This document shows positions 4,023 through 46,355 of a stretch of DNA of 47,215 nucleotides, one piece after another. The translations under genes and the position numbers were made by a program. The notes below the pieces were generated by a model. The model saw only the letters and a list, made by a program, of their open reading frames with translations. It had not been told where the DNA came from and did no database searches. Origin of the DNA: Candidatus Scalinduaceae bacterium (lineage in GTDB: Bacteria > Planctomycetota > Brocadiia > Brocadiales > Scalinduaceae); contig JBHICG010000022.1 of NCBI GenBank assembly GCA_046759445.1, positions 1 to 47,215 on the forward strand. The letters are read 5' to 3'. The stretch's first letter is position 1. Each line of letters begins with the position of its first letter.

Positions 4023-4200
4023 GCTTCGGGAGAGACTCCCGAAGCACAGAGCCCCGCCTTTGTGTTTGTGGCGGGCGACGAAACAAGATGGCGGGTATAC
4101 CTGCCTGTCGGCAGACAGGGAAACCCGCCCTACCTGTGACATTTTAAAATATGTAGGTCGCCCCCTCAGCTTGCAAGCGCAAGCTAGCAGAGGGGGCGGC
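4023..4200. repeat. Composite REP-like cluster with nested palindromic inserts
   Basis: GCTTCGGGAG-AGA-CTCCCGAAGC; CCCGCC..GGCGGG; GGCGGGTATA[20 bp]GAAACCCGCCCTAC; GTAGGT[40-bp hairpin]. Confidence 0.8.
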
Positions 4201-4233
4201 GAAATATCTATTTGGATGTTAATATAGTTAAAA

Positions 4234-4977
4234 ATGAGTGAATTAGGCCGAATACTGATCGCCGACGACGAAGAGACCTTCTTACACTCGACTGCCGACC
4301 TCTTGCGCAGGGAAGGGTATGCGTGTGATTGCGTCCCCGATGCAGGGGTTGCTATAGAGAAGCTGAGAGAAAACAGTTACGACGTGCTAATTGCCGACAT
4401 TCACATGCCCGGAAATCCAGAACTGGAACTCGTCAGGGAACTGCCAAAGGTGGCGGAAGGGATGCCGGTTATACTGGTTACAGGACAACCCTCGCTCAAC
4501 ACAGCAACCCAATCTATACAACTGCCTGTTGCCGCCTACATGATTAAGCCGATTGAATTCCACGAACTGTTGGCACAGGTTAGGGCTTCGATTGAAGGTT
4601 ACAGAGCCTATCGAGCCGTTAGTAATACCAGACAACGTTTGCGTGAGTGGAGTCAAGACCTCAATAACGTTGAGAGATTAGTGAGTAATGTTTCCGGCAA
4701 TCCATCCGCTGTACCCATTAACACATTCTTTGTGCTTACACTTAAAAACATAGTCGATGCCTTAATGGACTTGAAACACCTGACAGAAGAGCTAACGAGG
4801 AACAATGACGAGCAATATGTGTGCAATCTCCTTGCCTGCCCCCGACTAACTGAAATGAAGAATAGTTTGGTGGAATCAGTCAAAGTTCTAGAGAAAACCA
4901 GGAGTTCATTCAAATCAAAAGACCTTGGTGAATTAAGAAAGAAACTGGACATGCTTACGAAGAGAGTGGCAAAGTGA
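4234..4977 (+). CDS. Response regulator with uncharacterised helical C-terminal domain
   Basis: REC domain (ILIADDE, IADIHMP, VTG, KP) plus ~125 aa coiled region containing CNLLACP. Confidence 0.88.
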   Translation: MSELGRILIADDEETFLHSTADLLRREGYACDCVPDAGVAIEKLRENSYDVLIADIHMPGNPELELVRELPKVAEGMPVILVTGQPSLNTATQSIQLPVAAYMIKPIEFHELLAQVRASIEGYRAYRAVSNTRQRLREWSQDLNNVERLVSNVSGNPSAVPINTFFVLTLKNIVDALMDLKHLTEELTRNNDEQYVCNLLACPRLTEMKNSLVESVKVLEKTRSSFKSKDLGELRKKLDMLTKRVAK

Positions 4978-5031
4978 GGCAATCTCTAGTCAGGCGAGGT
5001 ATAGTAAAGTATCCTGGGGATTATAAGTTGA

Positions 5032-5189
5032 GTAGGTCGCATTTCCATATGCGACAAACATGGTGGCGGGTATGGAAACCCGCCCTACGTGTTATGTTTT
5101 TGTAGGGTGCGTTTCGATACGCACTGAATTAATGGTTTGCATTTCATAATGCGACGAACATATATTGGCGGGTAAGAAACCCGCCTTAC
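5032..5189. repeat. REP/REPIN-like cluster (GTAG...CTAC units)
   Basis: GTAGGTCGCAT..ATGCGAC plus GGCGGGT..AAACCCGCCCTAC doublets (x2) and GTAGGGTGCGT..ACGCAC. Confidence 0.8.
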
Positions 5190-5203
5190 GAAATATTCAA
5201 AAA

Positions 5204-7018
5204 ATGAAACAATTCCAGACAATCAAAGGCAAACTAATCATATTTGCACTCTGTATCTCGCTTATACCCATTCTCGTAATCACGGTTATATCCTACATTA
5301 ATGCCAGGAGCATGGTTAAGAAGCAGATACTACAGGGTCTAACGGCGATTGCAGAGTCAAAAAGGATGCACATCCTGTCTTTTATGCAGGCAAAAAGGGG
5401 TCGAGTTATTGACTTCAGCTCTGATGGGTTTATAAGGGACAACCTTGAGACAATCAGTCACAGAGGATATCAAATCCATGCTGTCAATAATTTAAATAGA
5501 TATCTCAAGGTGAACAAGAAGCCACTAGATCATCATATCGTAGCAATAACCATTGTAGACATGAACGGCAAGGTTGTCGTATCTACTAATGACACAGTAA
5601 TTGGGAAGGATATGTCCAAGCAGGAGTTATTTACGCAAGCCGTAAGTAGAAGTTACGGTGAGACTTGCGTTGTTCAACCGAGATATTCCCCATACATGGA
5701 CGCAAAGTGCCTATGTATTTCTGCGCCACTTATCTCAAGGCAGGGTTCTAAGACAATGGGCGTCATTGTCAATGCCTATGACCTGGCAGCTCTGAGTGAG
5801 ATTACAACAAACCGTGTCGGGATGGGAGAGACTGGAGAGGTCTATCTTGTTAATAGAGACAAGATAATGATCACTGAGTCGAGGTTCAAAGATGATGCCT
5901 CACTGAAGCAGGTGGTGGATACCGTGCCGGTTCGCAAGATTGCCAAGGAGGGGAAAGAGATGACAGGCATATATCCCGACTACAGGGGTGTGCCCATTGT
6001 TGGTGCCTCAGCGTATGTACCCGAATATGGCTGGACGCTCCTGGCAGAAATAGATAAGTCTGAAGCCTTTGCCCCTTTAAAGACGTTGGGTATAGTTGTG
6101 CTGATACTAGGTGGGGTTTGCGCTGCTGCAGCCGTAAGTATTGGGATTATCTTTGCCCTTTCAACGGCCAGACCCATCAATAGACTGAAGTATGCATCAG
6201 AAAGAATTGCAAGCGGTAATCTTAAACATAGAGTTGTAGTAAATCGTAAGGACGAGATCGGCGACCTGGCCGGCAGCTTTAATGATATGGCACATAAGCT
6301 TGAAAATGAGATTATGGAACACAAGCGGACAGAAGAAGAACTCTCTGTGTCTAATAAAGAGCTTGAAGCCTTCTGTTACTCCGTTTCGCACGACCTGCGC
6401 GCACCATTGCGGAGTATTGGAGGTTTTAGCGAAGCCATTATGGAGGACTATGCTGACGGGCTGAACTCTAAGGGAAAAGACTACCTCAAACGTGTACATA
6501 ATGCCTCCCAGCATATGAGTCAACTAATTGACGATTTACTGGATCTGTCCCGAATAACGCGCAGCGATATGCGCCACGAGACAGTCGATATGAGCGTGAT
6601 AGCACAAGAAATAGTAGAAAATCTCCGGAATTTACAACCGAAGCGCCAGTTAGAGTTCGTCATAGAGAAAGGACTCAACGTTAATGGTGATAAGCGGCTC
6701 CTGCGTATAGCCCTGAAAAACCTGCTTGATAACGCATGGAAGTTTACGGGGAGGCATTCATGCGCGAGAATAGAATTTGGTGTTAAACAAAATAATGGTG
6801 ATTCTGTGTATTTCGTGAGTGACGATGGAGCCGGCTTCGATATGGCGTATGTGGACAAACTGTTCATCGCCTTTCAGCGCCTGCACACTTCAGACGATTT
6901 CGACGGCACTGGCATTGGGTTGGTTACCGTACAGCGCATTATCCATCGCCACGGTGGTCGTGTATGGGCAGAAGGGGCAGTGGAGAAAGGCGCAACGTTT
7001 TATTTTACATTAACGTAG
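5204..7018 (+). CDS. Membrane sensor histidine kinase (dCache-HAMP, Cph1-type HisKA-HATPase)
   Basis: H-box YSVSHDLRAPLRSI, NLLDNAWKF, DDGAGF, GTGIGL. ATG 5204 is preferred because TTG 5165 lies in the REP cluster. Confidence 0.93.
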   Translation: MKQFQTIKGKLIIFALCISLIPILVITVISYINARSMVKKQILQGLTAIAESKRMHILSFMQAKRGRVIDFSSDGFIRDNLETISHRGYQIHAVNNLNRYLKVNKKPLDHHIVAITIVDMNGKVVVSTNDTVIGKDMSKQELFTQAVSRSYGETCVVQPRYSPYMDAKCLCISAPLISRQGSKTMGVIVNAYDLAALSEITTNRVGMGETGEVYLVNRDKIMITESRFKDDASLKQVVDTVPVRKIAKEGKEMTGIYPDYRGVPIVGASAYVPEYGWTLLAEIDKSEAFAPLKTLGIVVLILGGVCAAAAVSIGIIFALSTARPINRLKYASERIASGNLKHRVVVNRKDEIGDLAGSFNDMAHKLENEIMEHKRTEEELSVSNKELEAFCYSVSHDLRAPLRSIGGFSEAIMEDYADGLNSKGKDYLKRVHNASQHMSQLIDDLLDLSRITRSDMRHETVDMSVIAQEIVENLRNLQPKRQLEFVIEKGLNVNGDKRLLRIALKNLLDNAWKFTGRHSCARIEFGVKQNNGDSVYFVSDDGAGFDMAYVDKLFIAFQRLHTSDDFDGTGIGLVTVQRIIHRHGGRVWAEGAVEKGATFYFTLT

Positions 7019-7177
7019 GTTGCCGCCCCCTCAGCTTGCAAGCGCAAGCTAGCAGAGGGGGCGACAAACATGTATTGGCGGGTAGGAAACCCGCCCTACG
7101 TGCAGATTTTCAAACCATGTAGGTCGCATTTCATATGCGACGAATATATTGGCGGGTAAGGAAACCCGCCCTACGTG
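7016..7177. repeat. REP/REPIN-like cluster
   Basis: Two doublets ending GAAACCCGCCCTACGTG; the first carries the 40-bp hairpin identical to 4159-4198. Confidence 0.8.
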
Positions 7178-7180
7178 CTT

Positions 7181-7282
7181 TAGGAATGATGGATTAAAGA
7201 ATTGATGGATTTAGGGATTAAAGGATTGAGAAATTAATGAATTAAATTTTCAATTCTTAAATTCAAAATTCCTAAATTCCTT
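7181..7282. repeat. Inverted 8-mer array (degenerate)
   Basis: GAATGATG GATTAAA GAATTGATG GATTTAGG GATTAAAG GATTGAGA ... AATTCTTA AATTC.. AATTCCTA AATTCCTT. Confidence 0.7.
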
Positions 7283-7299
7283 CTTTTAAAAGAAAGGAC

Positions 7300-7752
7300 G
7301 TGTCAATGAAGGATAAGATTATTTTGCTCGTGGAAGATGATCCTGACCACATAGAGTTAACTATGCGCGCAATCGAGAGACATAATGTAGAGAATGGGGT
7401 AGTAGTTGCGAGAGATGGGGTAGAAGCGTTGGATTATCTCTTTGGCACCGGCAAATATGTTGATCGTGATACTAGTATTATGCCGGTGGTAATTTTGCTG
7501 GATTTGAAACTGCCAAAGATTGACGGCCTGGAGGTGTTGCGGCGCATACGAAACGATGAGCGGACAAAACTCATTCCAGTGGTTATTCTCACGTCTTCTG
7601 ACGAGGAGAAAGACATAGTTCAGGGCTACAACCTGGGTGCGAATAGCTATATCCGCAAACCAATGGATTTTGGCCAATTCACCGAGGCAGTGCGACAGTT
7701 GAGACTTTACTGGCTCCTGTTGAACGAACCACTGCCTCATGTTACAAGTTAA
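7300..7752 (+). CDS. Single-domain response regulator (Rcp1-like)
   Basis: ILLVEDDPD, LLDLKLPK, LTSS, GANSYIRKP, YWL. Start is GTG 7300 or ATG 7306. Confidence 0.93.
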   Translation: MSMKDKIILLVEDDPDHIELTMRAIERHNVENGVVVARDGVEALDYLFGTGKYVDRDTSIMPVVILLDLKLPKIDGLEVLRRIRNDERTKLIPVVILTSSDEEKDIVQGYNLGANSYIRKPMDFGQFTEAVRQLRLYWLLLNEPLPHVTS

Positions 7753-7804
7753 TGGGTATATTTTTTTCTTTACCATTTTTGGAGATATATTTCAGGACAA
7801 GATT

Positions 7805-7942
7805 AAATTCGAAATCCGAAGCACGAAATTCGAAATAAATCTAAATGAACAAAATTCAAATTAGTAGTTAATTTAGAGCTTTTGAACATTCCAATTTCAG
7901 ATTTGCCTGTCCCGTTAGATAGCAAGCATCTTACGGGATGAA
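7805..7942. repeat. 7-mer array (AAATTCG/AAATCCG/AAGCACG) with terminal CCCGT...ACGGG mini-palindrome
   Basis: AAATTCG AAATCCG AAGCACG AAATTCG; TCCCGTTAGAT..ATCTTACGGGA at 7910-7938. Confidence 0.7.
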
Positions 7943-7955
7943 AAGGAAGGTCTAG

Positions 7956-9842
7956 ATGAGTATACCGATTCGTGTGTTGATTGTTGAAGATTCAGAGGAT
8001 GATAGTGTCTTAATAGTGCGTGAACTGGAACGAGGTGGCTATGATCCAAAGTTTGAACGAGTAGAAAACCGTCAAGCTATGAGAGACGCCCTTAGTAGGC
8101 TAACATGGGACGTTATCGTCTGCGACTATGCCATGCCGAAGTTCAGCATGGCTGAGGCATTGGAGACATTGCAGAAAAGTGGACTTAACCTGCCGTTCAT
8201 CCTTGTATCCGGCACTGTAGGAGAAGAAGTTGCCGTTGAGGCTATGAAGACTGGCGCAGATGATTATATCATGAAGGATAGATTGGCAAGACTTGTTCCC
8301 TCCATTGAGCGAGAGCTGCGCGAGGCACAGAAAAGGCGTCAGGTCAGTGTAATACAGGAGCAACTCAAACTGTTATCTCACGCCGTAGAACAGAGTCCTG
8401 CTGTGGTAGTGATTACTGATAGCAAAGGTAATATTGAATACGTAAATCCTAAGTTTAAGGACATTACAGGCTATACATATAAAGAAGCCTTAGGAAATAA
8501 CCCCTGCATCATGAAATCTGGCAAACACACTCAAGAATTTTACAAAGGACTATGGGCTACAATTACGTCAGGTAAAGTGTGGCGTGGGGAGATTTGTAAT
8601 AAAAAGAAAGGTGGTGAACTATATTGGGAATCAGCATCCATTTCACCTGTCAAAAACAAAGAGGGGACAATTAGCCATTTCATTGCCGTAAAGGAAGAAA
8701 TAACGGAGCGAAAGCGGATAGATGATACAATTCAGGCTCTTGTCAAGAGCACAGTGGGAACGACAGGCCAAGATTTCTTTGACGGAGTTGTCAGTAGCTT
8801 GTGCGAATGGCTCGGCGTTGACTGTGCCTTTATGGGTCAAATCGTGGATGGGAATACTGTTAAATCGTTATCGATGCAACTTGATGGGAAGATTATTAAC
8901 GATTGCAATTACACTTTGGACGTAATCCCCACGCCATGTGGGAATGTTGCCGAATCTGGGTACTGTGTTTACCCTGAAGGAGTATGTAAATTGTTTCCAA
9001 ATGACACGGTTCTCTTAGAAATGGGGGCTGAAGGATATGTCGGCACACCCTTGCAGGATAAAAACGGCAAGGTTATTGGGTTACTCTGGGCCGTATCACG
9101 CCATAAACTGAATATACCGCTGCGTACTGCTGAAGTGATGGATATTATCGCAGCCAAGGCGAGCACCGAAATCGAAAGAATGCGTGCAGATGAGCAAATA
9201 AAGGCATCGCTCAGAGAAAAAGAGGTACTTCTGAAGGAAATTCACCATCGGGTCAAAAACAATCTGCAAATAGTTTCAAGTATGCTCAACCTTCAATCTG
9301 AATATATTAAGGAAAAAAAAACAATAGACGTATTCAGGGAGAGCCAGGCCCGTATCAAGTTAATAGCGCTCGTGCACGAACAATTGTATCAAGCTGAAGA
9401 TCTTGCGAGGGTTGATTTTGCGGAATACGTTCGTAACCTGATAAATTATTTATTAAGGGCGTATGGAGTCAATTGTAATTGTCTCTCAACTAAGATAAAT
9501 GGGAACAATGTTTTCCTTGATGTTAATACGGCAATCCCTTGTGGTTTGATAGTCAATGAACTTGTTTCAAATTCACTGAAATATGCCTTTCCTGCCTGCA
9601 CCAGTGGTGAGGGAAAGATGTCCAAAGGTAAAATTGAAGGAAAAATCTGCGTTAGCCTTAGTCCTGAAGATGATAAATATACTCTGATTGTCAGTGATAA
9701 TGGTGCGGGCTTTCCTGAAGATTTAGACTTCAGGAACACTACGACGTTAGGTATGCAGTTGGTGAAAACATTAACGGATCAGCTTGAAGGTTCCATCAAG
9801 CTTGATGTCAGTAATGGGACTGAATTTAAGATTACGTTTTAG
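7956..9842 (+). CDS. Cytoplasmic hybrid kinase REC-PAS-GAF-HisKA_2-HATPase
   Basis: REC (VCDYAMP), PAS (IEYVNPKF...WRGEICNKKK), GAF, LLKEIHHRVKNNLQ, NELVSNSLKYAF, DNGAG, LGMQLV. Confidence 0.93.
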   Translation: MSIPIRVLIVEDSEDDSVLIVRELERGGYDPKFERVENRQAMRDALSRLTWDVIVCDYAMPKFSMAEALETLQKSGLNLPFILVSGTVGEEVAVEAMKTGADDYIMKDRLARLVPSIERELREAQKRRQVSVIQEQLKLLSHAVEQSPAVVVITDSKGNIEYVNPKFKDITGYTYKEALGNNPCIMKSGKHTQEFYKGLWATITSGKVWRGEICNKKKGGELYWESASISPVKNKEGTISHFIAVKEEITERKRIDDTIQALVKSTVGTTGQDFFDGVVSSLCEWLGVDCAFMGQIVDGNTVKSLSMQLDGKIINDCNYTLDVIPTPCGNVAESGYCVYPEGVCKLFPNDTVLLEMGAEGYVGTPLQDKNGKVIGLLWAVSRHKLNIPLRTAEVMDIIAAKASTEIERMRADEQIKASLREKEVLLKEIHHRVKNNLQIVSSMLNLQSEYIKEKKTIDVFRESQARIKLIALVHEQLYQAEDLARVDFAEYVRNLINYLLRAYGVNCNCLSTKINGNNVFLDVNTAIPCGLIVNELVSNSLKYAFPACTSGEGKMSKGKIEGKICVSLSPEDDKYTLIVSDNGAGFPEDLDFRNTTTLGMQLVKTLTDQLEGSIKLDVSNGTEFKITF

Positions 9843-9886
9843 TTCCTTAATAAAAATATTTTGGCCATTTTTGGCAAAAAATTTCG

Positions 9887-9960
9887 ATTTGAGATTTAGG
9901 AATTTAGGAATTGGGGAATCCCTTAATCCCTCAATTCTTCAATATTTATAATTCCTAAAT
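9887..9960. repeat. Inverted 8-mer array
   Basis: ATTTAGGA ATTTAGGA ATTGGGGA then AATCCCTT AATCCCTC AATTCTTC ... AATTCCTA. Confidence 0.75.
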
Positions 9961-9966
9961 AATATT

Positions 9967-11502
9967 ATGAAAAATGCACAAATCCTGATTGTTGAAGATG
10001 AAAATATCGTAGCTTTGGACATACAAAATAGGCTTAAGCGCCTGGGATATGGGGTTCTTGCTGTTGCATCTTCTGGGAAGGAAGCTATTCAGAAGGCATC
10101 AGGAACCCGTCCGGATTTAGTGCTGATGGATATTATGTTAAAGGGGGATATGGATGGAGTGGAAACCGCCAAAAAATTGCAGGAGTTTTTAGATGTTCCT
10201 GTTGTGTATCTTACTGCTTATACGGATGACAGCACACTTCGAAGGGCAAAGGTAACGGAGCCCTATGGATACATTCTCAAACCTTTTGAAGAAAGAGATT
10301 TGCACATTAATATCGAGATAGCCCTCTATAAGCATGAGATGGAAAGGAAATTAAAAGAGAGTGAAAAGCATTATCACACCTTGGTAAAAGTGTCACCGGT
10401 AGGGGTATTCAATACGGATGCCGAGGGGCGCTGTTTATATGTAAACGAGCGATGGTGTGAGATAACAGGACTTACTATGGTAGAAGTGCTTGGAGAAGAC
10501 TGGTCGCGAGCCTTGCATCCCGATGACCGTGAGCGTGCCCTCACGGAGTGGTACCAGGCCACGAAAAAGAAGTTATCGTTTAAATCTGAATATCGCTTTA
10601 TTCGACCCGGTAGTGTAATAACTTGGGTATTAGGTCAAGGGATACCAGAGATAGCGGAAACCGGAGAAGTTATGAGCTATGTCGGCACAATCACCGACAT
10701 AACAGAGCGCAAGCAGATGGAAGAGTGTATCCGTCAGCATAACGAGGAGTTGGAAGAACTGGTAGAGAAGCGCGCCATGCGCATCAAGGAGCTGGAACGT
10801 CAACGAATGGAAAGCGAGAAGCTTGCTGCAGTTGGACGAATGGCGGCAAGGGTTGCCCACGAGATAAACAATCCGCTGGGAGGTATAAAGACATCCTTTC
10901 TCCTAATAAAGGATGCAGTACCAGAGAATCACCAATATTACCAATACGTAGGCATGGTAGAGAAAGAGATTGGACGTATTACGCGTATTGTGCGTCAGAT
11001 GTTCGACCTGTGCCGTCCGAACCAGGAAAGGCCAGGTAAGTTCGATGCCCGTGCAACCATTCGAGACGTAATAACCATGCTTAAGTATCTTGGTGAAGAG
11101 CACAGTGTAGACATAAACCTGGAACCATGTGAAGAGTCTATTGTTGTGACTATGTCTGAGGACATGCTCAGGCAGGTATTGTTTAACATTATTAAAAACG
11201 CCATAGAGGCATCTCCTCGGGTTGGCCTGGTCAATGTTGCCGTAAAGATTAGTGATAAGGCATTGACGATCATTGTCTCTGACCAGGGCAGTGGGATTCC
11301 AGACGAATTGCGCTCACAGATCTTCGAACCGTTCTTTACAACAAAGAGTAAAGGCTCTACGGGTGGATTAGGCCTGGGGCTTTCAACTACACAGAGTATT
11401 GTGGAAGCAAATGGAGGTTCCATTGATTTCATGAGCGGAAAGAACAAGGGTACGGTCTTTACGATAGAGCTGCCGATTATGGTGAATGATAAAAAGAGAT
11501 AA
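9967..11502 (+). CDS. Cytoplasmic hybrid kinase REC-PAS-HisKA-HATPase
   Basis: REC (VLMDIML, LTA, KPF), PAS (YVNERW, LHPDDR), [32 protein letters not shown]. Confidence 0.93.
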   Translation: MKNAQILIVEDENIVALDIQNRLKRLGYGVLAVASSGKEAIQKASGTRPDLVLMDIMLKGDMDGVETAKKLQEFLDVPVVYLTAYTDDSTLRRAKVTEPYGYILKPFEERDLHINIEIALYKHEMERKLKESEKHYHTLVKVSPVGVFNTDAEGRCLYVNERWCEITGLTMVEVLGEDWSRALHPDDRERALTEWYQATKKKLSFKSEYRFIRPGSVITWVLGQGIPEIAETGEVMSYVGTITDITERKQMEECIRQHNEELEELVEKRAMRIKELERQRMESEKLAAVGRMAARVAHEINNPLGGIKTSFLLIKDAVPENHQYYQYVGMVEKEIGRITRIVRQMFDLCRPNQERPGKFDARATIRDVITMLKYLGEEHSVDINLEPCEESIVVTMSEDMLRQVLFNIIKNAIEASPRVGLVNVAVKISDKALTIIVSDQGSGIPDELRSQIFEPFFTTKSKGSTGGLGLGLSTTQSIVEANGGSIDFMSGKNKGTVFTIELPIMVNDKKR

Positions 11503-11528
11503 GAGTAGCCATATAGGGGTTGCCTATT

Positions 11529-11592
11529 GGCAGGTTATCCGAGAATTGCCTATGACAAAAAATAGTGCTTTTGTTTATTCTCGGACAGTCTG
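11529..11592. mobile_element. Miniature derivative of the IS1182-like element (two terminal repeats around a 30-bp core)
   Basis: GGCAGGTTATCCGAGAAT ... ATTCTCGGACAGTCTG match 706-723 in inverted and direct orientation. Confidence 0.65.
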
Positions 11593-11786
11593 TTGACGGC
11601 ATCCTATAAAATGGATATACATAATATAATCTCGGAAGCAACTACTCACTAATCAAACCTAGGGAAGCTATTCTTAAAATAGGATACTTTAGATTCCCTG
11701 GCACTTGTTTTATTACGTCTAAAGGCGAGCTGAGCGCGGCTTAATAAATTAATATCCAAAGCACGTCAAGTTGCATCTTGCCTACC

Positions 11787-11928
11787 GTAGTGAAATACCT
11801 TTGGCAATTCGGAGAATTGCACGGTTTCCACTACAAACGGTTACAATCGTAATACTGTGCAAAATTTGATATTCTCATAGCATAAATATGCGTGCTAAGT
11901 TTGATGGAGGGCTAAAGACCTCCGCTAC
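11787..11928. repeat. Two REP-like hairpins
   Basis: GTAGTGAAATACC..GCAATTC GGA GAATTGC..GGTTTCCACTAC (11787-11834) and GGAGGGCTAAAGACCTCCGCTAC (11906-11928). Confidence 0.55.
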
Positions 11929-12042
11929 AATCTTCGAGCAGATTTTTTAATGCTCGGTACGGCTCATATATTATTGTGAATATAGAGCTTAAAACAGCAA
12001 CTTCCCGCTAACCCGCTTAAAAAAATAAAAATTCCTATAATA

Positions 12043-18942: not shown

Positions 18943-18945
18943 GAT

Positions 18946-23592: not shown

Positions 23593-24906
23593 ATGAAGAG
23601 AGTTCTCTTTGTCGATGATGACAAGAATGCACTCCAGGGGTTTAAGAGAATGTTACGCCCGATGCGTTACGAATGGGAAATGGAATATGCAATGAGTGGT
23701 GAAGATGCCCTGAATTTTATGTCACAAGTTTCTTATGATGCTGTTGTATCCAATATGCGTATGTCTAGAATGAATGGTATAGAATTACTTAGTATCGTTA
23801 TGGAACACTATCCTGAGACCGTCCGTATTATCCTTTCAGAGAATTCAGACAGAGAGATGGTGATGAAGGCTATTAAGTGTACGCATCAGTTTTTAATAAA
23901 ACCATGTGATGCAGAGACAATGAAGTACACAATTGAACGTGCGTGTAAACTGAGAGATTTGTTAAGAAACGAAGCATTGAAAAAGATGGTTACAGGAATT
24001 AGAGATTTGCCAAGTCTCCCGAGATTATATAATAAGATTATTAGAGAAATGCAGTCTTCTGATCCTTCTCTTAAAAAGGCAGCCAGGATTATTGCTCAGG
24101 ATATTTCTATGTCTGCCAAGATCTTACAGCTTGTTAATTCAGCTTATTTTGGCCTACCGCAAAAAATTATAAATCCAGAGCAGGCATCAATTTATCTAGG
24201 CACAGAAACGTTGAAGGCGCTTGTACTTTGTGTTCATGTGTTTTCTTCATTTACAGAAGAGGCGGAATTGTCCGGGTTTTCAATGGCTGATATGTGGAAG
24301 CACAGTCTGCTGGTGGGAAGACTTGCCAAGGATATTGCTAGTTCTGAAATGGTAGATAAAGATGAGGCAGAGGAGGCGTTGATAGCCGGTATATTACATG
24401 ATATAGGAAAGCTGATTTTGCTGAAAGTTCCTGAACAACGCAGAAAAGTAAATGAATTTATTGAATGGACTGGGTGTGATCTTGTAGAAGCTGAATACGC
24501 TTTTATTGAAACATCTCATGCAGAAACGGGGGCATATCTGTTAGGGCTATGGGGGCTTAATGATAACATAGTTGAGGCAGTTGCCTTTCATCACAATCCA
24601 TCAAATTTGCTGGAGAATATATTTATCGACTTAAACAAACCATCAAATCAAGTTGTAGGTAAAACAAATCCAAAATATGGTGATTTGGAGTTGCGATCGG
24701 CTAAAAAATATTTAAAAGGATTTACTACATTGACGGCCGTACATATTGCGAATTCGCTGATGATGCAAAAAGATTGTTCTTCAGATATAACTGATTATTC
24801 ATACGTTGATATGTTGTATTTGAGAACACTTAATATGGAAGATAGACTACCTGAGTGGGCAGAATATTATAAAAGACTAGTGCAAGAAGATGTTCAAGAA
24901 GAATGA
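23593..24906 (+). CDS. Receiver-HDOD domain protein with atypical receiver
   Basis: VLFVDDD..VSNMRM..KP; LPSLP, KILQLVNSAYFG, WKHS, GILHDIGKL, HAETGAYLLGLW, FHHNP. Confidence 0.92.
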   Translation: MKRVLFVDDDKNALQGFKRMLRPMRYEWEMEYAMSGEDALNFMSQVSYDAVVSNMRMSRMNGIELLSIVMEHYPETVRIILSENSDREMVMKAIKCTHQFLIKPCDAETMKYTIERACKLRDLLRNEALKKMVTGIRDLPSLPRLYNKIIREMQSSDPSLKKAARIIAQDISMSAKILQLVNSAYFGLPQKIINPEQASIYLGTETLKALVLCVHVFSSFTEEAELSGFSMADMWKHSLLVGRLAKDIASSEMVDKDEAEEALIAGILHDIGKLILLKVPEQRRKVNEFIEWTGCDLVEAEYAFIETSHAETGAYLLGLWGLNDNIVEAVAFHHNPSNLLENIFIDLNKPSNQVVGKTNPKYGDLELRSAKKYLKGFTTLTAVHIANSLMMQKDCSSDITDYSYVDMLYLRTLNMEDRLPEWAEYYKRLVQEDVQEE

Positions 24907-24972
24907 GAAGAATGAGAAGAATGAGAAGAATGATAAGAATGAGAAGAATGATAAGAAAGAGAAGAAAGATAG
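24901..24972 (+). repeat. 9-bp tandem repeat GAAWGAKAR x8
   Basis: GAATGAGAA x3, GAATGATAA, GAATGAGAA, GAATGATAA, GAAAGAGAA, GAAAGATAG. Confidence 0.9.
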
Positions 24973-25132
24973 CTATTAACATTACATAGAAATACTTGAT
25001 ATTGTGCATTACCATTCTTGCTAGAGTATAGACTTTTGTGAAACCGTCTGCTGCTATGTTTTGCTTATTTCATCTGTGATCATTTAGTGTTAATACTAAA
25101 ACAATCTATTAAAAAGACGTCATAAAGTAATT

Positions 25133-33241: not shown

Positions 33242-33286
33242 ATATTATGTGTTTCGTTTTATCTACAACTATTTTAAACTTTTACG

Positions 33287-33445
33287 ACCTAAATTGAGCG
33301 ATTTTGTAGCCGCAACCTTGAGGTTGCGTGACTTACGAGGATCCATCAAATGATGAGAAACGCAGGCTTATCCCGTTGCTAATATCTACGGGACTTAAGC
33401 ACTGCGGCTACAATGGCATATAATATAAAATCGCTCAATTTAGGT
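33287..33445 (+). mobile_element. MITE-like element, copy 1
   Basis: Perfect 19-bp terminal inverted repeat ACCTAAATTGAGCGATTTT; inverted second copy at 44215-44385. Confidence 0.8.
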
Positions 33446-33541
33446 ACGAGCAAGTTAAAAATTTAAATATTAAAGATAATTTATAATAATGCTTTGCTGT
33501 CGCTGAATAAATGACAAATGACTAAATGACGGAGAAGCTAA

Positions 33542-36749: not shown

Positions 36750-36779
36750 TTTTTGTTCTCCTTTAAATCATAGTGCCGT

Positions 36780-38372: not shown

Positions 38373-38400
38373 TTGACATTTAAGTTTGTTTTACTAGAAT
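38373..38400 (+). promoter_or_regulatory. Sigma70-type promoter, possibly giving a leaderless mRNA
   Basis: TTGACA-16 nt-TAGAAT with 7 nt before ATG 38408. Confidence 0.55.
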
Positions 38401-38407
38401 CCGTAAT

Positions 38408-39538: not shown

Positions 39539-39670
39539 ATATAAAAAACGTCAAAGATGAAAAAGTTGTGTACTCGTCTTGTATAATTTGTTTTTGAGAA
39601 CCAATTTAGTGGGTTTGTTAATTAGCAACTGAAAAAAGGTTAATTTAATGTATAGTCTTTCAATGTTTAC

Positions 39671-39807
39671 AGATTCCCGATCAAGTCCGGGTGTGATTCT
39701 GTCTGTCCTTCGGACAGTTTAGCAGAATCACCTAAGCAAATCCGCTTTTGCGGAATTGCCAATGACATTCCTGGTCAAATGTGTCATTCCCGCGAAAGCG
39801 GGAATCT
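39671..39807. repeat. RS3-like ATTCCC-N8-GGGAAT repeat pair, one unit interrupted
   Basis: TGTCATTCCCGCGAAAGCGGGAATCT (39782-39807) and AGATTCCCGATCAAGTCCGGG[insert]AATGACA. Confidence 0.7.
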
Positions 39808-39916
39808 AACTCATTGTATTACGTTGAAAATAAGTTTCGTTAGATATATCATTGAAGGTAATCATTTTTCATCGGAATCATAACTGACCAAACTTCATAA
39901 AGGGTATAATATAGTA

Positions 39917-40405
39917 GTGCTGTATTTCTTGAAATGTAGACTTCGAAGAGTAAAACGGTGGTTGATAATGCTGGCAATTATTTCTGGAATAGCCGCTAAC
40001 TTTATTTCCTGTAAAAAATCTGAGGAAATAGAGGTTGAAGAGATACGTGCATACATGTCAGAAGAGGAGAGTCTTGGAGCCGCCATGAAAAAGACATCCA
40101 GAGATGTCAGGCGATTAGCAAGAGCCGTAGAGTCCAGGGATTGGATTGAAATGGAGATGTGGGCAAATGAACTGAAACAAGGTATCGGTGTTAGTTGTGT
40201 TAATCTGTATATAAAAAATCACCCCGGTGCTTCGGGTGATTTTATTATATTGGGTGACAGATTTTATAATACCGTACACAGGTTGATTTTATCTTGTAAA
40301 GACCATGACTCACAGATTGCAGATGCTGAATTTAAGAAGATGATAAAGTCTTGTGATGATTGTCATGAAGGATATAAAAAGAAAGGAAAAGAGAAGGAAG
40401 GATGA
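39917..40405 (+). CDS. Monoheme class II (four-helix) cytochrome c, probable lipoprotein
   Basis: Signal ending FISC; helical body; C-terminal CDDCH. Start uncertain (39917, 39950 or 39968). Confidence 0.78.
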   Translation: MLYFLKCRLRRVKRWLIMLAIISGIAANFISCKKSEEIEVEEIRAYMSEEESLGAAMKKTSRDVRRLARAVESRDWIEMEMWANELKQGIGVSCVNLYIKNHPGASGDFIILGDRFYNTVHRLILSCKDHDSQIADAEFKKMIKSCDDCHEGYKKKGKEKEG

Positions 40406-40493
40406 CATAACGCAGTAGATGGTTAACAAAATGAATGTTGTTAAATCAAGATGCTAATATTCATTAAAGTATGGAATATCCTAATGGTATAAA

Positions 40494-40602
40494 AATTCGA
40501 AGCACGAAGTCCTAAAGACGAAACAATATCTAATGTCGTTCAATTCTTTGAATTGCCTTAATCCAAAACATCTCGCTTCGAAAATTGAGGATTTGAATTT
40601 AG
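40494..40602. repeat. Degenerate 7-mer array (AAATTCG AAGCACG...)
   Basis: AAATTCGAAGCACGAA matches the 7805-7830 array; complementary-like arm CGCTTCGAA..GGATTTGAATTT. Confidence 0.5.
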
Positions 40603-40648
40603 TGTTTTTCAGTCCAGAGGTTTTAAACAATTATGTAACTCTTTCTGT

Positions 40649-40906
40649 TCATTCCTCAGCCTCTTCTTCAGTGGTTTCAGCAGCTTCTTCCTCAGCCTCT
40701 TCTGCAACCCCTTCCTCTTCATGCGCTTCTTCAGCAGTTGCCTCCACGGGTACTTCTTTTTTATTTATCGAGCTGAGAAGACTTCCCGCACATACAAGAA
40801 AGGCGGCAACTGATAAAATAAATATGAGGACGCAGAATAAACCACCTATCTTTCGTACAAAATCTTTTGTCATTATGTCGTCTAGCTTTTTTAAAAGTTC
40901 ATCCAT
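40649..40906 (-). CDS. Small membrane protein with acidic Glu/Ala tail
   Basis: GGAG RBS, one TM helix, EEAHEEEGVAEEAEEE tail. Confidence 0.75.
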   Translation of the reverse strand: MDELLKKLDDIMTKDFVRKIGGLFCVLIFILSVAAFLVCAGSLLSSINKKEVPVEATAEEAHEEEGVAEEAEEEAAETTEEEAEE

Positions 40907-41276
40907 TTGTATTTCTCCTAATTTACTCTGACAATCCTAAAAGTTGTAAAAATTATACATACTTAACAATAAAATTCAAGGAATAATTAGTTTAACTTTT
41001 AGGAAAGAAAATAGGTGTATGAGCCATACTTAAAGCAGGAAAATGTAGAAAAGACATTACTTGTTTGTTTTTGTTAAGACTAAGATATGTAAAATATGTT
41101 TTATAAAAGACTTATGCTTGATGATTGCATAAAAGTGTAAAGTTGTGTTGTTATGAAACTATTGAAATATGATTGATTATAAAGCAGATAAAGGGAAAAG
41201 TGTTGATTGTGAGAATCGTTTTGTTTATAAGGGTATGGCTACTGGATTACATACAAAATTTGAAAGGAGGGTAAAG

Positions 41277-41630
41277 GTGAAAATAATTAGATTACTTGTT
41301 TTTGGAATCTTAATATCTTGCTGTTCAACAATTTTTGCTCAAAAGAGGGATGTTTTTGTCAGGCTTAAACACGGTCTTCCTAACATTTTAAAAGTAACAA
41401 ACGTAAGGATATATTCGGATAGTCCAACGTCGGCAAAAATAAGCGTCTGGATAAATGTTAAGAAGGGAAAAATAGTAAGCGTAAGCCGTGGCGGTGGCGA
41501 CTGGATAATTACGTTACGTACGCGTGGTGAGGTGTCCACATACGTTGTCTCAGAGAAATCTTTTAGGATAGCTGGAGAAGGGTCCAAGGCCGTAAAAATA
41601 AGGGCTATGCACTTTGCAGAAAGCAGTTGA
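41277..41630 (+). CDS. Hypothetical exported beta-rich protein
   Basis: AAGGAGG RBS before GTG 41277; signal peptide ending IFA. Confidence 0.65.
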   Translation: MKIIRLLVFGILISCCSTIFAQKRDVFVRLKHGLPNILKVTNVRIYSDSPTSAKISVWINVKKGKIVSVSRGGGDWIITLRTRGEVSTYVVSEKSFRIAGEGSKAVKIRAMHFAESS

Positions 41631-41683
41631 GATACCTCTGGAAGATGCAATTATTTCAGACTATCGGTTAAATTAATAATTTT

Positions 41684-41917
41684 ATGAAACTGCATACTGT
41701 TCAAGTAAATGCATACGCAGGATATAAGGCAGAAGAAAGGCCTCTAAGTTTTATCTTTAAAGGGAAAGAGTGCATAGTTGAGGAGATAATTTGCCAAACT
41801 TATGAAGAAAATAATATTGAAGGGCTGAAAAGAAGATATACCGTAAAAACAGATGAAGGACTTGTATTTAAATTACACTATTATGAAGATCAAGACCAAT
41901 GGTTTTTAGAAGAGTAA
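41684..41917 (+). CDS. Small conserved-looking hypothetical protein
   Basis: YAGYKAEERP.SF...V.E....Y.VKT..G..F.L.Y....WFL pattern (DUF6504-like). Confidence 0.7.
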   Translation: MKLHTVQVNAYAGYKAEERPLSFIFKGKECIVEEIICQTYEENNIEGLKRRYTVKTDEGLVFKLHYYEDQDQWFLEE

Positions 41918-42058
41918 AAGTTAGATGATTCTAAAATATCGGGGTTAAATTAGTTCATTGTGATTTCTGTTTTTTTGATGATAAACCTTTATCTAAAATT
42001 GTGCCATATACCGAATAATCATTCCAACTGTGACAGGTATAGAGTTTTGATAATTAGT

Positions 42059-42730
42059 TTAGTCTTTCTTTTTTTCCCTTAATGATTCAATAACTTCATC
42101 AATAATCCCGTATTCTTTGGCTTCCTGTGCAGACATATAGAAGTCTCTGTCAAAGTCTTTTTCAACCTTATCTATTGGTTGGCTACTGTGTTTTACAAGT
42201 ATTTCATTAAGGCTCTTCTTCATGTACATTATTTCTTCTGCCTGGATACTGATGTCTGTCGCTGTTCCGCTGGTTCCTCCCCATGGCTGATGCAACATTA
42301 TTCTTGTGTGAGGTAAGCTATATCTCTTACCCTTAGTGCCTGCGGCCATAAGTACTGCACCCATACTAAATGCCTGACCAACACAAAAGGTAGCAACATC
42401 ACATTGAACGAATTGCATTGTGTCATAGATCGCAAGACCTGCCGTAATTGAACCACCAGGAGAGTTTATATAAATGTTTATATCCTGGTTTTTATTTTCG
42501 TTTTGCAAAAATAGCATTTGAGCTATTACAAGATTTGAGATGGTGTCTTCTATTGGGGTGCCAATGAATATTATTCGGTCTTTGAGTAATCTGGAGAATA
42601 TATCGTAATGTCTTTCCCCATAGCCTGATTTTTCTACTACGTACGGAACAAATTGATTTTTGTAATTTTTATTTAACATATCATAAAATTTCTTGTATGA
42701 ATAATCATTCATGTTAAAATCCTTGACCAT
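42059..42730 (-). CDS. clpP: ATP-dependent Clp protease proteolytic subunit
   Basis: [25 protein letters not shown] (Ser), MLHQP (His), DRD. Confidence 0.97.
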
Positions 42731-42754
42731 CTAAACTCCTCCTAGTTACATTAT

Positions 42755-44053
42755 TTAATCCTTTTCCTGTTTAATTTCTTCTATAGCGGCCTCTTTTATT
42801 AAAAAATCTACCGTCTTACTTTCTTTCATTTGATATCGTAAATTTGACATGCTATCCAGTTTCTCAAGCTGCATACGCATCTTAGAAGGTTCGATACCGT
42901 ACATACTGGCTAACATGTTAATCCTTTTATTAACATCCGTTTCTGTTACAAATATTTTTTCTTTTTCTGCTATACGTTCAAGAACAAGAGATAGTTTGAA
43001 ATCTCTAACAACAGACTCTTCAGAGGCATTTTTGAGATTTTCCAAATCTTTTTGTATTTCTTCCAATGGTGTTCCTTTATTTAAAAGTTCGATTTGGTAC
43101 TTGTGAAGTCTTTTATTTGACTGGCTTTCAATCAAATCTTCTGGTAAATCAAAATTGGCCATTTCCAAGAGGTTCTTATAAATTTGTTCACGCAAGTCGT
43201 TATCTACCTGTGCCTTCTTCTCTGTTTCTAATCTTTTTGACAAGAACTCCTTCAATGCACCGAGTGAATCATAGCCAATTTGTTTTGCCAATTCATCGTT
43301 TATCTCAGGGATATCGGGTCTTTTAATTTCCTTTAGCGATAATTCTAACTCGGCGGGTTTGTGTCTGTACTGCTCTACAGGAAAATTCTCTCCTAACTCT
43401 ACTTTTATGGAGTGCTTTTCTCTTGACCTGGTGCCTAAAAGATTTTTCTTCAGATCTGGTACATTGATACCTGCTACGGTAGTACCTGATACCGTAATTT
43501 CCAGATCTTCATCCTTCCATACTGCTTTGCTTTCAACTCTAACTTCACAATCACATATAATATAGTCGCCATCTTCTACTTTACCATCATCCACAATAAT
43601 TAGTTGAGCTCTTTGTCTGCTCATAGCCTTCAAGGCATTGTCCATGTCTTCGTTCGTAATTGATACGGGCTTTTTCTTCAGTTGCATCCCTTTGTATTCT
43701 CCCAGCTCAAATGTTGGTAAAACTTCCATTTTAACATCAAAGTTCAGGGGTTTTCCCAATTCAAGCTTGATATTGCCCATTTCTGGTTCACCTACGGGCG
43801 ATAGCTTGTTTTTTTCAATTGCTTCCTGATATGTATCGTTGACTATGGTTTGTTTTACCTGGTCCATAATTCGGTCATTGTACTTTCTTTCAATGAGCTT
43901 TTTAGGCGCTTTGCCTTTTCTGAAACCTGGTAAATTTGCCATTTTACATAGCTCATTCAATTGCTTTTGCCACTCAACTTCTATTTTTTCCTTTGGTATC
44001 TCAATCTTAAGCAATTTTTTGCACGGGCCTATTTCTTCAATTTTTACATTCAT
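42755..44053 (-). CDS. tig: Trigger factor
   Basis: LPGFRKGKAP ribosome-binding motif; 432 aa; located upstream of clpP. Confidence 0.96.
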   Translation of the reverse strand: MNVKIEEIGPCKKLLKIEIPKEKIEVEWQKQLNELCKMANLPGFRKGKAPKKLIERKYNDRIMDQVKQTIVNDTYQEAIEKNKLSPVGEPEMGNIKLELGKPLNFDVKMEVLPTFELGEYKGMQLKKKPVSITNEDMDNALKAMSRQRAQLIIVDDGKVEDGDYIICDCEVRVESKAVWKDEDLEITVSGTTVAGINVPDLKKNLLGTRSREKHSIKVELGENFPVEQYRHKPAELELSLKEIKRPDIPEINDELAKQIGYDSLGALKEFLSKRLETEKKAQVDNDLREQIYKNLLEMANFDLPEDLIESQSNKRLHKYQIELLNKGTPLEEIQKDLENLKNASEESVVRDFKLSLVLERIAEKEKIFVTETDVNKRINMLASMYGIEPSKMRMQLEKLDSMSNLRYQMKESKTVDFLIKEAAIEEIKQEKD

Positions 44054-44117
44054 TTTGTTTAAGTTATTTAATACAAAATTTATGGAATACTTACATGGTT
44101 TTCATATATTGTCTTAA

Positions 44118-44189
44118 AGCGGGTGATGGGGTTCGAACCCACGACATTCACGTTGGCAACGTGACGCTCTACCACTGAGCTACACCCGC
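44118..44189 (-). tRNA. tRNA-Gly(GCC)
   Basis: GCGGGTGTAGCTCAGTGGTAGAGC-G-TCACG TT GCC AA CGTGA..GGTTCGAACCC; CCA not encoded. Confidence 0.97.
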
Positions 44190-44214
44190 TTAATATAACT
44201 TAATTATAAATTAT

Positions 44215-44385
44215 ACCTAAATTGAGAGATTTTATATTATATATTACTGTAGCCGCAGTGCTTAAGTCCCGTAGATATTAGCAACGGGATAAGCCTGCGT
44301 TTCTCATCACCTGATGGGTATATGAAGATTTCACGTAAGTTACACAACCTAAAGGTTGCGGCTACACAAATCGCTCAATTTAGAT
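44215..44385 (-). mobile_element. MITE-like element, copy 2, lying between the two tRNAs
   Basis: Terminal repeats ACCTAAATTGAGAGATTT / AAATCGCTCAATTTAGAT; 62-bp core identical (inverted) to 33351-33412. Confidence 0.8.
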
Positions 44386-44424
44386 TATAATTAACAGTTA
44401 AGGATTTACAATATATTTTTATTT

Positions 44425-44509
44425 TGGTGCGAGAGGGGGGAGTCGAACCCCCACACCTTGCGGTACTAGATCCTAAGTCTAGCGCGTCTGCCAGTTCCGC
44501 CACCCTCGC
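44425..44509 (-). tRNA. tRNA-Leu(TAG)
   Basis: GCGAGGGTGGCGGAACTGGCAGACGCG-CTAGA CT TAG GA TCTAG, long variable arm, GGTTCGACTCC, ACCA end. Confidence 0.97.
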
Positions 44510-44768
44510 AAGGAATGTTCTTGAAGTATATCTCTTTCATGTCATGCAAGAGCCAAATCACTGAATTATCGGTTAAAAAAGAATTTAATAGCTTTTACCA
44601 ATTTTTAAGTATGGTTTCAAGTAAGAAATCCTGTTTGATGAAATTGGCGATTTCTTAAAGATTCTTGTTGTCTTTACTGCGTATTGTTACTTTAACTCAA
44701 AATTAATCAATCCTGGTTTCTATTATTACATTTTAATTCAATATTGCCAATCAAGATGTTGGATACAT

Positions 44769-46160
44769 TCAGGACGACCAATGTTTTATTCCTGAGCCAT
44801 CCAATTTGGAATTAAGTTGCTTAACCAGAGACTTCATTTCGTCAAATGTATCATAATCGATACCCATTCCATGAATAGCAAAGGTGCTTTTGTTGTGGCA
44901 AAGGGGCTCATTCTCAATTTGCGGACAGAGCTTGGATGCTCTCTTAAATTCCTCCGTACCAGGGACAGGCGAATATTCAGCCAGTTTTATTCTGGCGCCT
45001 AGTTTATTTACATATTCCATAGCTTCCACCACTTCATCAACTGTCTGCTCTGGAAGCCCCGCAAGGATATATACACCAATGTCCCATGTGGAATACCTAT
45101 CCCTGGCGAAGCTGTTCTGAACATCTTCCACCTCTCGCAGACAATACAAAGCATTTTCAAGTTCCTGGCCGTTAACCTTATACCTGGAAGCCTGTTGTAT
45201 GATTCTGGATGTACCTTCAAAACCCATCCTTATCGTCTTGAAACCAACCTTCCATAGTAAACGAGCTAACGGAAGGTCTATATATCTCGGATGTAGTCCA
45301 TTAGGGGTATGGTATTGTGCTGGCAACCCTTTCTCAATCAACGACTCCAGTATGGGCATTATGTGCCTTTCAGAATTTACGAGCAGGGCATCGTCATAAA
45401 AGGCTATGTCCTTTACGCCCATTGTTGCAACGTATCTTTCTATCTCGGACACTACCTTTTCTGAATTCCTGAGGATAAAACTTGACTCGAAGCGAAACGA
45501 GGCGCAATAGGTACATCGAAAGGGACAACCCCTTGAAGTGAGGATGCTAATTGCATTAAGTTTGGGGTAAAGCTCATAGGCAGGTGACATTTCATCTTCT
45601 AACCATTTCCTGAGTTGGCTATAGTTACGCCTTTTACCGCTGAGATTATCTGCCAGCTTCAGCACCTCGAGTTCGCCAGCCCCCTGGATGACATAATCCG
45701 CACCAGAGTTATCCGCTGCATGTTTGTAGCAAAGGGTGGCGTAGATACCTCCCAGGGCAATAGGTACAGAAGGAAAGACTGTTTTTACCATTCTTATTAC
45801 TTCAAAGACCCCTGGATACCAGTATGTCATGTGAGACGTCACGCACACCAGTAATGGCTTTGGTATCTTCTTTAGTCTGTTCTGAAATTCCTCAGGTGAC
45901 ATCCCATAGCGTTTGTAACGTCTGGGAATGTCTTTAAATATGGATGGTTTTTCTATTTCCTGTGAGTGAAAAAATCCCGTTCCATAAGGTTGCTGCTTCA
46001 GTGGACGTCCATAATTGTGAAGGCAATCTATCATGTTTACGTTGTATCCGAAACGATGCAGGGTTGATGCAACGTAGAGGAGACCAAGAGGTTTTGCCCA
46101 TAGATTGAAGGCAGTGAAATCATGAATCCATGAATTTATGAGTAGTATCCTATTTTTCAT
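44769..46160 (-). CDS. B12-binding radical SAM protein
   Basis: PLGLLY, GGIYATL, GAGE, TSRGCPFRCTYC, FYDDA, TPNG. Confidence 0.92.
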   Translation of the reverse strand: MKNRILLINSWIHDFTAFNLWAKPLGLLYVASTLHRFGYNVNMIDCLHNYGRPLKQQPYGTGFFHSQEIEKPSIFKDIPRRYKRYGMSPEEFQNRLKKIPKPLLVCVTSHMTYWYPGVFEVIRMVKTVFPSVPIALGGIYATLCYKHAADNSGADYVIQGAGELEVLKLADNLSGKRRNYSQLRKWLEDEMSPAYELYPKLNAISILTSRGCPFRCTYCASFRFESSFILRNSEKVVSEIERYVATMGVKDIAFYDDALLVNSERHIMPILESLIEKGLPAQYHTPNGLHPRYIDLPLARLLWKVGFKTIRMGFEGTSRIIQQASRYKVNGQELENALYCLREVEDVQNSFARDRYSTWDIGVYILAGLPEQTVDEVVEAMEYVNKLGARIKLAEYSPVPGTEEFKRASKLCPQIENEPLCHNKSTFAIHGMGIDYDTFDEMKSLVKQLNSKLDGSGIKHWSS

Positions 46161-46236
46161 ATCTTAACCAAGATTGGCTGATATAAAATCAGATGGTAAA
46201 AATTGTTACCAGTATTAAGTATAAGGACTAAAAAAT

Positions 46237-46355
46237 AAATTCAAAATTTAAAAATTCTAAATTTGAATTTGCATGTCCCGTCAGATAGTGAGCATCTTAC
46301 GGGGTGAATATTTCGATATTCAATATTCGGATTTACGTGATTTGAAATTTAAGGT
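46237..46355. repeat. 7-mer array with CCCGT...ACGGG mini-palindrome
   Basis: 46267-46308 matches 7901-7942 at 37/42; flanked by AAATTC-type units and ATTTCGAT/ATTCGGATTT units. Confidence 0.7.

Follow-up and report, generated by a model that had tools for sequence, protein, structure and literature searches.

Here we examine how very small palindromes are nested in the intergenic DNA of an anammox bacterium, in a 47,215-nt stretch (the window) of a Candidatus (Ca.) Scalinduaceae genome (assembly GCA_046759445.1, contig JBHICG010000022.1). GC-rich hairpin modules of 20–40 nt are placed in the apical loops of GTAG-headed hairpins, which belong to repetitive extragenic palindromic sequences (REPs) in spacers and to a miniature inverted-repeat transposable element (MITE). 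One of them, module a, is a dispersed anammox family that occurs inside REP loops and elsewhere; two others, modules b and c, behave alike structurally and have fewer copies. The original prediction, made from the letters of the window, had described four nested cases (a to d) as tiny palindromes inserting into each other's hairpins. All four sequences were found where it had placed them, and the presence of modules in REP and MITE hairpins agrees with its central idea; reciprocal nesting was not seen.

The window was compared with 119 loci (L001–L119, about 1 Mb) from genomes other than its own, retrieved by scanning a genome collection with the pattern of REP-B, the host repeat described below. 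The scan gave at least 120 stretches, and at least 48 assemblies, counted from the listing, lie behind those listed. The DNA examined divides into 181,589 nt (about 182 kb) of anammox DNA and 815,362 nt (about 815 kb) of other loci. All empty forms outside the window are paralogues in other species, with no orthologous filled/empty pair among them. Copies of b, c and d were searched for with blastn-short, and the stem pairs of the a family were counted by script. Rfam at gathering threshold returned two tRNAs only from the window, so no known RNA family accounts for the hairpins.

Module a in the loops of GTAG-type REPs

The hosts (REP-A, REP-B and both hairpins of the MITE) are ordinary GTAG-type REPs, each with a terminal GTAG beside a short GC-rich stem-loop. 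REP-B (GGCGGG/CCCGCC) ends in CTAC and reads on the other strand as GTAG with a 6–7-bp GC stem and a TTTC..TA loop. REP-A (GTCGC/GCGAC) follows the same plan with compensating changes in its arms, and at 5102–5124 there is a third arm variant, which has GTGCG arms. Sub-types with complementary stem changes, dimers and clusters are features of the GTAG-type format in the relevant passages of PMC3733652, and the 140 distinct REP-B copies in the window and the 119 loci are likewise dispersed and extragenic and occur in dimers and clusters. The window contains five perfect GTAG hairpins plus filled and variant copies, and its REPs form three arrays in which REP-A on the plus strand alternates with REP-B on the minus strand (4050–4203, 5032–5189 and 7015–7174). 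In the 182 kb of anammox DNA there are 52 GTAG hairpins, mostly in dimers.

The original prediction had not recognised these hosts as GTAG-type REPs of a family common to Chloroflexota. REP-B, a 23-nt GTAG REP, is present among the matches listed in at least 39 Chloroflexota assemblies, at least four of Ca. Scalindua and at least one of Ca. Kuenenia, and also in at least four single records labelled otherwise. With their GC content of 39–42%, the anammox loci are not mis-binned Chloroflexota DNA. That the REP-B family is common to co-living phyla of anammox communities suggests the transfer of a REP system. In Ca. Kuenenia hertensis (L072, 9936–12476), several GTAG REPs flank dnaA, dnaN and a DciA-like gene, beside gyrB.

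Module a is a 20-nt hairpin at 4100–4119 (minus strand) with a 4-nt loop and an 8-bp stem, which on the minus strand comprises seven Watson-Crick pairs and one G.T pair. As predicted for a repeat interrupted at 4100, it fills the loop of one of the five REP-B copies of the window (4090–4133, GTAG head on the minus strand), and its four siblings (5065–5088, 5167–5189, 7077–7099 and 7151–7174) are empty, with one or two variable loop bases only. The same variable position is 1–2 nt long in 128 of the 140 distinct REP-B copies and longer in 12: five partial tandem duplications, two pairs of neighbouring REPs, one four-nt loop variant and four hairpin inserts. Three of these inserts (window, L068 and L116) belong to one family, a, and the fourth (L042) is a different, 18-nt hairpin.

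The a family has the consensus CCYGYCTG-N(4-11)-CRGGCAGG and members of 20–27 nt. The motif used to search for it (CCYGYCTG, 3–14 nt, CRGGCAGG on the GTAG strand) was informed by five of the copies, those in L018 and L043 being new finds. It has seven matches in the 181,589 nt of anammox DNA, spread over four or five anammox genomes, none in the 815,362 nt from the other loci and, on average, 0.0 in 200 shuffles, and none of the 117 non-anammox REP-B copies is filled with module a. Four of the seven copies sit in REP loops, with GGCGGG arms (window, L068 and L116) or GTCGGG arms (L088). These four have one common orientation relative to GTAG and lie, with no duplication, between TTT(C/T) and (T)TA; other bases precede the remaining three. 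The sites in L068 and L116 have just 81 nt in common and are therefore separate and non-orthologous, and the REP-hosted copies arose independently. In the L088 dimer the REP-B half is empty and its partner filled, and in L068 the reverse holds.

Three copies lie outside intact REPs: one is free, with no REP arms around it (L018), one is beside half a REP (L043), and one is inside a weak outer stem (L072, Kuenenia). By loop length (11, 8 or 4 nt) the copies fall into three sub-families, and each of these contains both REP-hosted and non-hosted members. The 8-bp stem is retained in all seven copies; sub-type changes are one-sided, with a C.A mismatch in five of five Scalindua-type copies. At least for module a, these data support the view that the inserts are discrete units and not local accidents.

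Modules b and c and further nested hairpins

Module b is a 40-nt hairpin with a 9-bp outer stem enclosing a 7-bp inner hairpin. Its two copies (4159–4198 and 7024–7063) are identical at 40 of 40 positions, though the surrounding REP-A arms differ: both hosts are on the plus strand, one with a GTAG head and a GTCGC arm (4153–4203), the other with a GTTGC arm (7015–7065). The original prediction had described this hairpin as replacing the loop of GTCGC/GCGAC, and comparison with the empty REP-A copies of the window (5032–5055 and 7119–7141) bears it out, since b stands in place of the normal 9–10-nt loop, which is replaced and not extended, and its two junctions are offset by 3 nt in register. 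No further copy was found in the window or the 119 loci. These features fit either an insertion after which the old loop was lost or a REP variant in its own right, with a long stem, and the case for independent mobility of b is weak.

The second of these options can be extended to all modules, which would then be the inner parts of long-loop REP variants that spread with the REP and are exchanged between REP types by gene conversion. REP families in which short and long self-complementary loops (up to 27 bp) coexist are described in part of PMC3733652. The restriction of b to REP-A, with its replaced loop, agrees with such an origin, as does the frequency of partial tandem REP-B duplications (five of the 12 long-loop matches). 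Furthermore, the 5' arm of the Scalindua-type a stem equals the right arm of REP-B, and the non-hosted copies in L043 and L072 adjoin REP-like fragments, so the a family could itself derive from REPs. However, one a sub-type is hosted by REPs whose arms differ and which make up one or the other half of a dimer, the L018 copy has no surrounding REP arms, and c and an insert in L043 (see below) lie in unrelated MITE hairpins. The 117 non-anammox REP-B copies, none of which carries a, point the same way, and we consider an origin as long-loop REP sub-families somewhat unlikely.

The MITE that hosts module c is 157–169 bp long, with 18-bp terminal inverted repeats, 5-bp target duplications and no open reading frame (ORF), and is represented by two copies in the window and two in Ca. 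Scalindua. Copy 1 (33288–33444, plus strand) is flanked by TACGA (33283–33287 and 33445–33449) and contains two GTAG-headed hairpins; copy 2 (44216–44384, minus strand), flanked by TTATA (44211–44215 and 44385–44389), lies between tRNA-Gly and tRNA-Leu. Module c, a 23-nt hairpin (33371–33393 and 44267–44289), occupies the loop in one of the two MITE hairpins, between CTTA repeats (33367–33370 and 33394–33397 in copy 1). It was correctly predicted in both window copies, and no copy without it is present in the window. Both Ca. Scalindua copies (L058 and L043) lack exactly the 28-nt module c stretch and have a 4-nt loop instead, and the L043 copy carries a different 20-nt insert, with no target duplication, in the loop of the other MITE hairpin. 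The copies of this 130-nt element thus differ twice, independently, and each time in one of its two apical loops. No further copies of c were found in the 119 loci.

A hairpin with the stem of module c (TCCCGT/ACGGGA) and a longer loop is present at 7910–7938 (plus strand) and 46276–46304. It ends a 62-nt repeat (7881–7942 and 46247–46308, 81% identical), one copy of which is just upstream of a gene starting at 7956 and the other between two minus-strand genes. In L043 (15203–15252), a hairpin with ATTCCCGT/ACGGGAAT arms, RS3-like and with the module c stem, has a 34-nt loop containing small GC hairpins.

The 6-bp inverted ends of c and the 4-bp direct repeat CTTA at its flanks raise another explanation, in which a DDE transposase would move the modules, each being no more than a pair of terminal inverted repeats that an insertion sequence has left behind or given rise to. 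Elements do shrink to an extreme degree in this DNA: the two ends of a 67-bp element (11528–11594) match sequence (702–724) just downstream of an IS1182-family transposase fragment at 19 of 22 and 23 of 25 bases, and the element is a very small MITE-like derivative of an IS1182-family end. However, there is no target duplication at a, at the L043 insert or at an insert in L087, the module ends are unlike the IS1182 end except for a single 8-mer in d, and to our knowledge DDE elements have no need of a loop target. We regard this origin as very improbable. Two specific derivations were also tried and set aside: module a as abutted IS1182 ends, for which the end matches are of 6 nt only and the arm order is reversed, and the inner hairpin of d as an IS1182 end pair, where the single common 8-mer was treated as chance.

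Nesting is not confined to these modules. Folding of the filled forms gives coaxial nested hairpins, with z-scores between –3.8 and –7.9, and a strict census of the 182 kb of anammox DNA gave 123 GC-rich perfect hairpins, 10 of them nested, against 31–58 and 1–4 in 20 block shuffles; nesting is therefore beyond chance. An unbiased screen for filled and empty forms and an arms-only search brought further inserts to light. In L087, a 25-nt hairpin lies at the loop edge of a 14-bp hairpin that has three empty siblings, with no target duplication, and loop inserts are also present in L042 (18 nt) and L015 (21 nt). The unbiased screen also revealed a loop-segment duplication in L058 and a 15-nt hairpin that is present or absent among the units of an array in L075 (Anaerolineae).

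All junctions seen are in an apical loop or at its edge, which upholds the predicted preference for existing stem-loops. None of the outcomes that the original prediction had itself named as damaging to it was encountered: inserts are not confined to their host repeats (three of the seven a copies are elsewhere), empty forms exist in relatives for a and c and within the window for b, and the junctions are not random with respect to structure. By eye, the C-rich arm comes first and the G-rich arm second, on either strand, in nine of nine inserted hairpins (the window modules, L015, L042, L075 and L087). In the GTAG REP hosts the order is the opposite, with the G-rich arm leading. A polarity rule for the inserts would be tentative, as polarities were mixed in the strict census.

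Hairpins in loops might also arise where they stand, if replication switched templates at REP loops or hairpins were repaired there. The 8 nt immediately following the left REP-B arm in the window are nearly its reverse complement, and duplications of loop segments and arms occur in L058, L015, L076, L094 and L104. However, a comparison of the inserts with 150 nt of flank on each side revealed no common k-mer beyond shuffles, except for a borderline 9-mer of c (10 of 300 shuffles), so the inserts are not locally templated. In addition, the same a stem recurs in seven places in several genomes, b is identical at two sites, and the finding of one module at unrelated sites is already partly the case for a. 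We give local palindrome growth little credence.

Case d (39693–39731, plus strand) is a 9-bp stem enclosing a 6-bp hairpin; it occurs once, and neither a sibling nor an empty form was found in the window or the roughly 1 Mb of loci. The predicted hairpin within a hairpin is there; the claim that it splits an RS3-like unit found no support. An RS3-like unit does adjoin d (39782–39808, plus strand), with a TGTC tag, an 8-bp stem starting with AT and a 4-nt loop. It conforms to the CGTC-type REP format given in part of PMC3733652 (CGTC or TGTC tag, 8–9-bp stem starting with AT, 4–5-nt loop and short tail) and occurs once in the window and nowhere in the loci.

A candidate route of insertion and the genomic surroundings

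Since the hosts are GTAG-type REPs, a REP-linked mechanism is the natural first guess. With rather less than even confidence, we propose that the modules are non-autonomous single-hairpin elements that undergo single-strand, loop-directed insertion by an HUH/Y1 enzyme. Their copying or movement, in single-stranded form, would depend on an enzyme whose gene lies elsewhere in the genome; the most plausible is an HUH/Y1 transposase of the REP-associated tyrosine transposase (RAYT) or IS200/IS605 type. In a REP folded on single-stranded DNA or extruded as a cruciform, the loop would be the only unpaired stretch and, as the preferred acceptor, would receive inserts precisely, in one orientation and with no target duplication. 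The filled hairpin would then spread with its host, as it may have done in the MITE, both window copies of which carry c. We infer this route because the hosts are known RAYT substrates, RAYT cutting GTAG REPs as single strands (passages of PMC3733652), and because insertions are known to concentrate in REPs (PMC1525189).

Our confidence is held at this level by the lack of an enzyme gene, the duplication-like repeat of c and the likeness of a to swapped REP arms, and these are among several observations that weigh against the proposal. To the REP-like features of a described above, we add that b replaces its loop with a shift in register and has two copies only, both in REP-A. The common insertion point in REP-B was partly built into the scan pattern; L088 and L015, found without a position constraint, agree with it. 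Module c is flanked by the CTTA direct repeat, and a Y1 mechanism would not produce a flanking direct repeat. A deletion between the CTTA repeats may instead have given rise to the MITE without c.

The search for an enzyme adds to these objections. There was no Y1 or RAYT match among 22 REP-adjacent ORFs, no RayT match among 5,981 six-frame ORFs of the loci and window (phmmer with E. coli RayT, E up to 10) and no transposase among 97 of 97 ORFs of ten anammox loci. The transposase in the window is an IS1182 DDE fragment only, Pfam revealed no nuclease or transposase in 11 further ORFs, and no REP-flanked RAYT (Y1/HUH) gene is present in the window and the roughly 1 Mb of loci, which are a small part of each genome. 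The trans-acting enzyme of the original prediction was accordingly not identified in the window or in about 1 Mb from relatives, and its remark that the window holds no candidate beyond the IS1182 transposase fragment proved right.

Spread through RNA, or by another unknown route, was reportedly proposed for the small dispersed repeat (SDR) elements of cyanobacteria. The window a stem has a G.T pair on the GTAG strand versus a C.A mismatch on the other strand, as RNA-mediated spread might favour. However, no reverse transcriptase was found in the window or the sampled loci, and the Scalindua-type a stem has one mismatch on either strand. We think such a route highly unlikely.

Within the loop-directed insertion that we prefer, a narrower reading, which we regard as doubtful, would make the a family a parasite of a parasite: a headless single hairpin of 20–27 nt that homes into the unpaired GTAG REP loops of anammox Planctomycetota with a fixed orientation and no duplication. 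For its movement it would depend on the REP machinery or on a loop-directed enzyme as yet unknown. If so, it would be among the smallest mobile DNAs known and the first such outside cyanobacteria.

The window is AT-rich Scalinduaceae (anammox) DNA (GC 33–46%) with genes for many two-component regulators, glycogen enzymes, ThiC, ClpP, trigger factor and two tRNAs; its trigger factor is 72–79% identical to the closest relatives, the named ones being Ca. Scalindua and Scalinduaceae. All window copies of REP-A and REP-B lie in a two-component gene block of 42–46% GC (4001–12000), and most other 2-kb bins have 33–38%. Near the first array, a 10-bp hairpin at 4023–4045 (plus strand) has a sibling at 2807–2829 and is part of the mosaic spacer, not an insert. 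It is followed at 4052–4075 by a hairpin that, to judge from its sequence, has the arms of REP-B in swapped order, C-rich arm first, and that would occupy the expected place of the left arm and loop of a REP-A, directly before CGAC, a spacer and REP-B. The second array opens with a dimer with its GTAG ends outside (5032–5088), formed by an empty REP-A (5032–5055, plus strand) and an empty REP-B (5065–5088, minus strand). Its second part (5102–5189) comprises the GTGCG-arm GTAG hairpin (5102–5124), a REP-A remnant without a GTAG head (5139–5155) and a REP-B with a TTAC tail (5167–5189). The third array continues beyond the filled REP-A as an alternating series (7077–7174) resembling a bacterial interspersed mosaic element (BIME), with an empty REP-B (7077–7099, minus strand), a REP-A (7119–7141, plus strand) and a REP-B (7151–7174, minus strand).

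A kinase ORF between the second and third arrays (5165–7018) has a listed TTG start that overlaps the REP-B copy at 5167–5189, and its true start is probably the ATG near 5205. Behind genes of the two-component cluster, short arrays of 7–8-nt units (GAGGAATT-like) and the arrays of their complement that follow them (2706–2769, 3217–3291, 7180–7280 and 9889–9944) make up long imperfect hairpins, reminiscent of the tandem heptamers found in cyanobacteria. At 24881–24979, a tandem 9-nt repeat (AAGAATGAG-like, at least eight units) runs across the stop of a response-regulator/HD gene (23593–24906).

Relation to known systems

How elements of 20–30 nt spread has been an open question since the cyanobacterial SDRs. 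The case described here adds a second, unrelated lineage with very small elements, and in it the acceptor, the GTAG REP loop, is well defined. One module is found free as well as in REPs of two types, and Chloroflexota, which have the REP family but almost never the module, provide a natural control. Nested palindromes also account for unusual structures in the spacers of anammox assemblies and probably for their contig breaks. The literature searched contained no account of REPs or MITEs in anammox bacteria and nothing relevant on nested or loop-inserted REPs.

Yeast mitochondrial genomes contain GC clusters, small GC-rich palindromes of the AT-rich spacers, one of which can contain another; the likeness is an analogy only, as an organelle genome and unrelated sequences are involved. 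SDR1–8 of Nostoc and its relatives, reported by Elhai and colleagues in 2008, are said to be hairpins of about 21–27 nt that turn up in varied settings, mini-transposons among them, can be nested in other repeats and are not linked to any known enzyme, and SDR5 is reportedly inserted at a precise point of the HIP1 palindrome. Ours resemble the elements so described in small size, hairpin form, nesting and precise insertion into a palindrome. They differ in phylum and sequence and in having GTAG REP loops as targets rather than HIP1 or their own copies, self-nesting not being seen here. The combination of a length of about 21–27 nt with dispersal over unrelated contexts is found in a only (seven copies, at least three kinds of context), and not in b (40 nt, two copies, one context) or c (two copies, one context).

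The hosts resemble the GTAG REPs, BIMEs and REP doublets (REPINs) that are associated with RAYT (Di Nocera et al., 2013, parts of PMC3733652; Bertels and Rainey, 2011, PMC3116915) in their GTAG head and 5–7-bp GC-rich stem, in compensating arm sub-types, in dimers with GTAG ends outside or inside and in alternating clusters. Those systems have a RAYT, whereas none was found in the DNA sampled here. Some known REP families have long self-complementary loops, but the long loops here are discrete modules that also occur outside REPs and within differing arms. REP hairpins are likewise the preferred acceptors of REP-targeting insertion sequences, which, in the portions of PMC1525189 concerned (Tobes and Pareja, 2006), are full-length and encode a transposase, whereas our inserts are non-coding and 20–40 nt long. 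Nested pairing is also seen in Thermomicrobium roseum, Anabaena variabilis and Halothiobacillus neapolitanus, in which REPs are nested in small palindromes, the target palindrome of T. roseum also having its C-rich arm first (passages of PMC3733652). The order of nesting is reversed, with the REP inside the palindrome there and the palindrome inside the REP loop here. The closest known cases are the cyanobacterial SDR elements and the long-loop REP variants.

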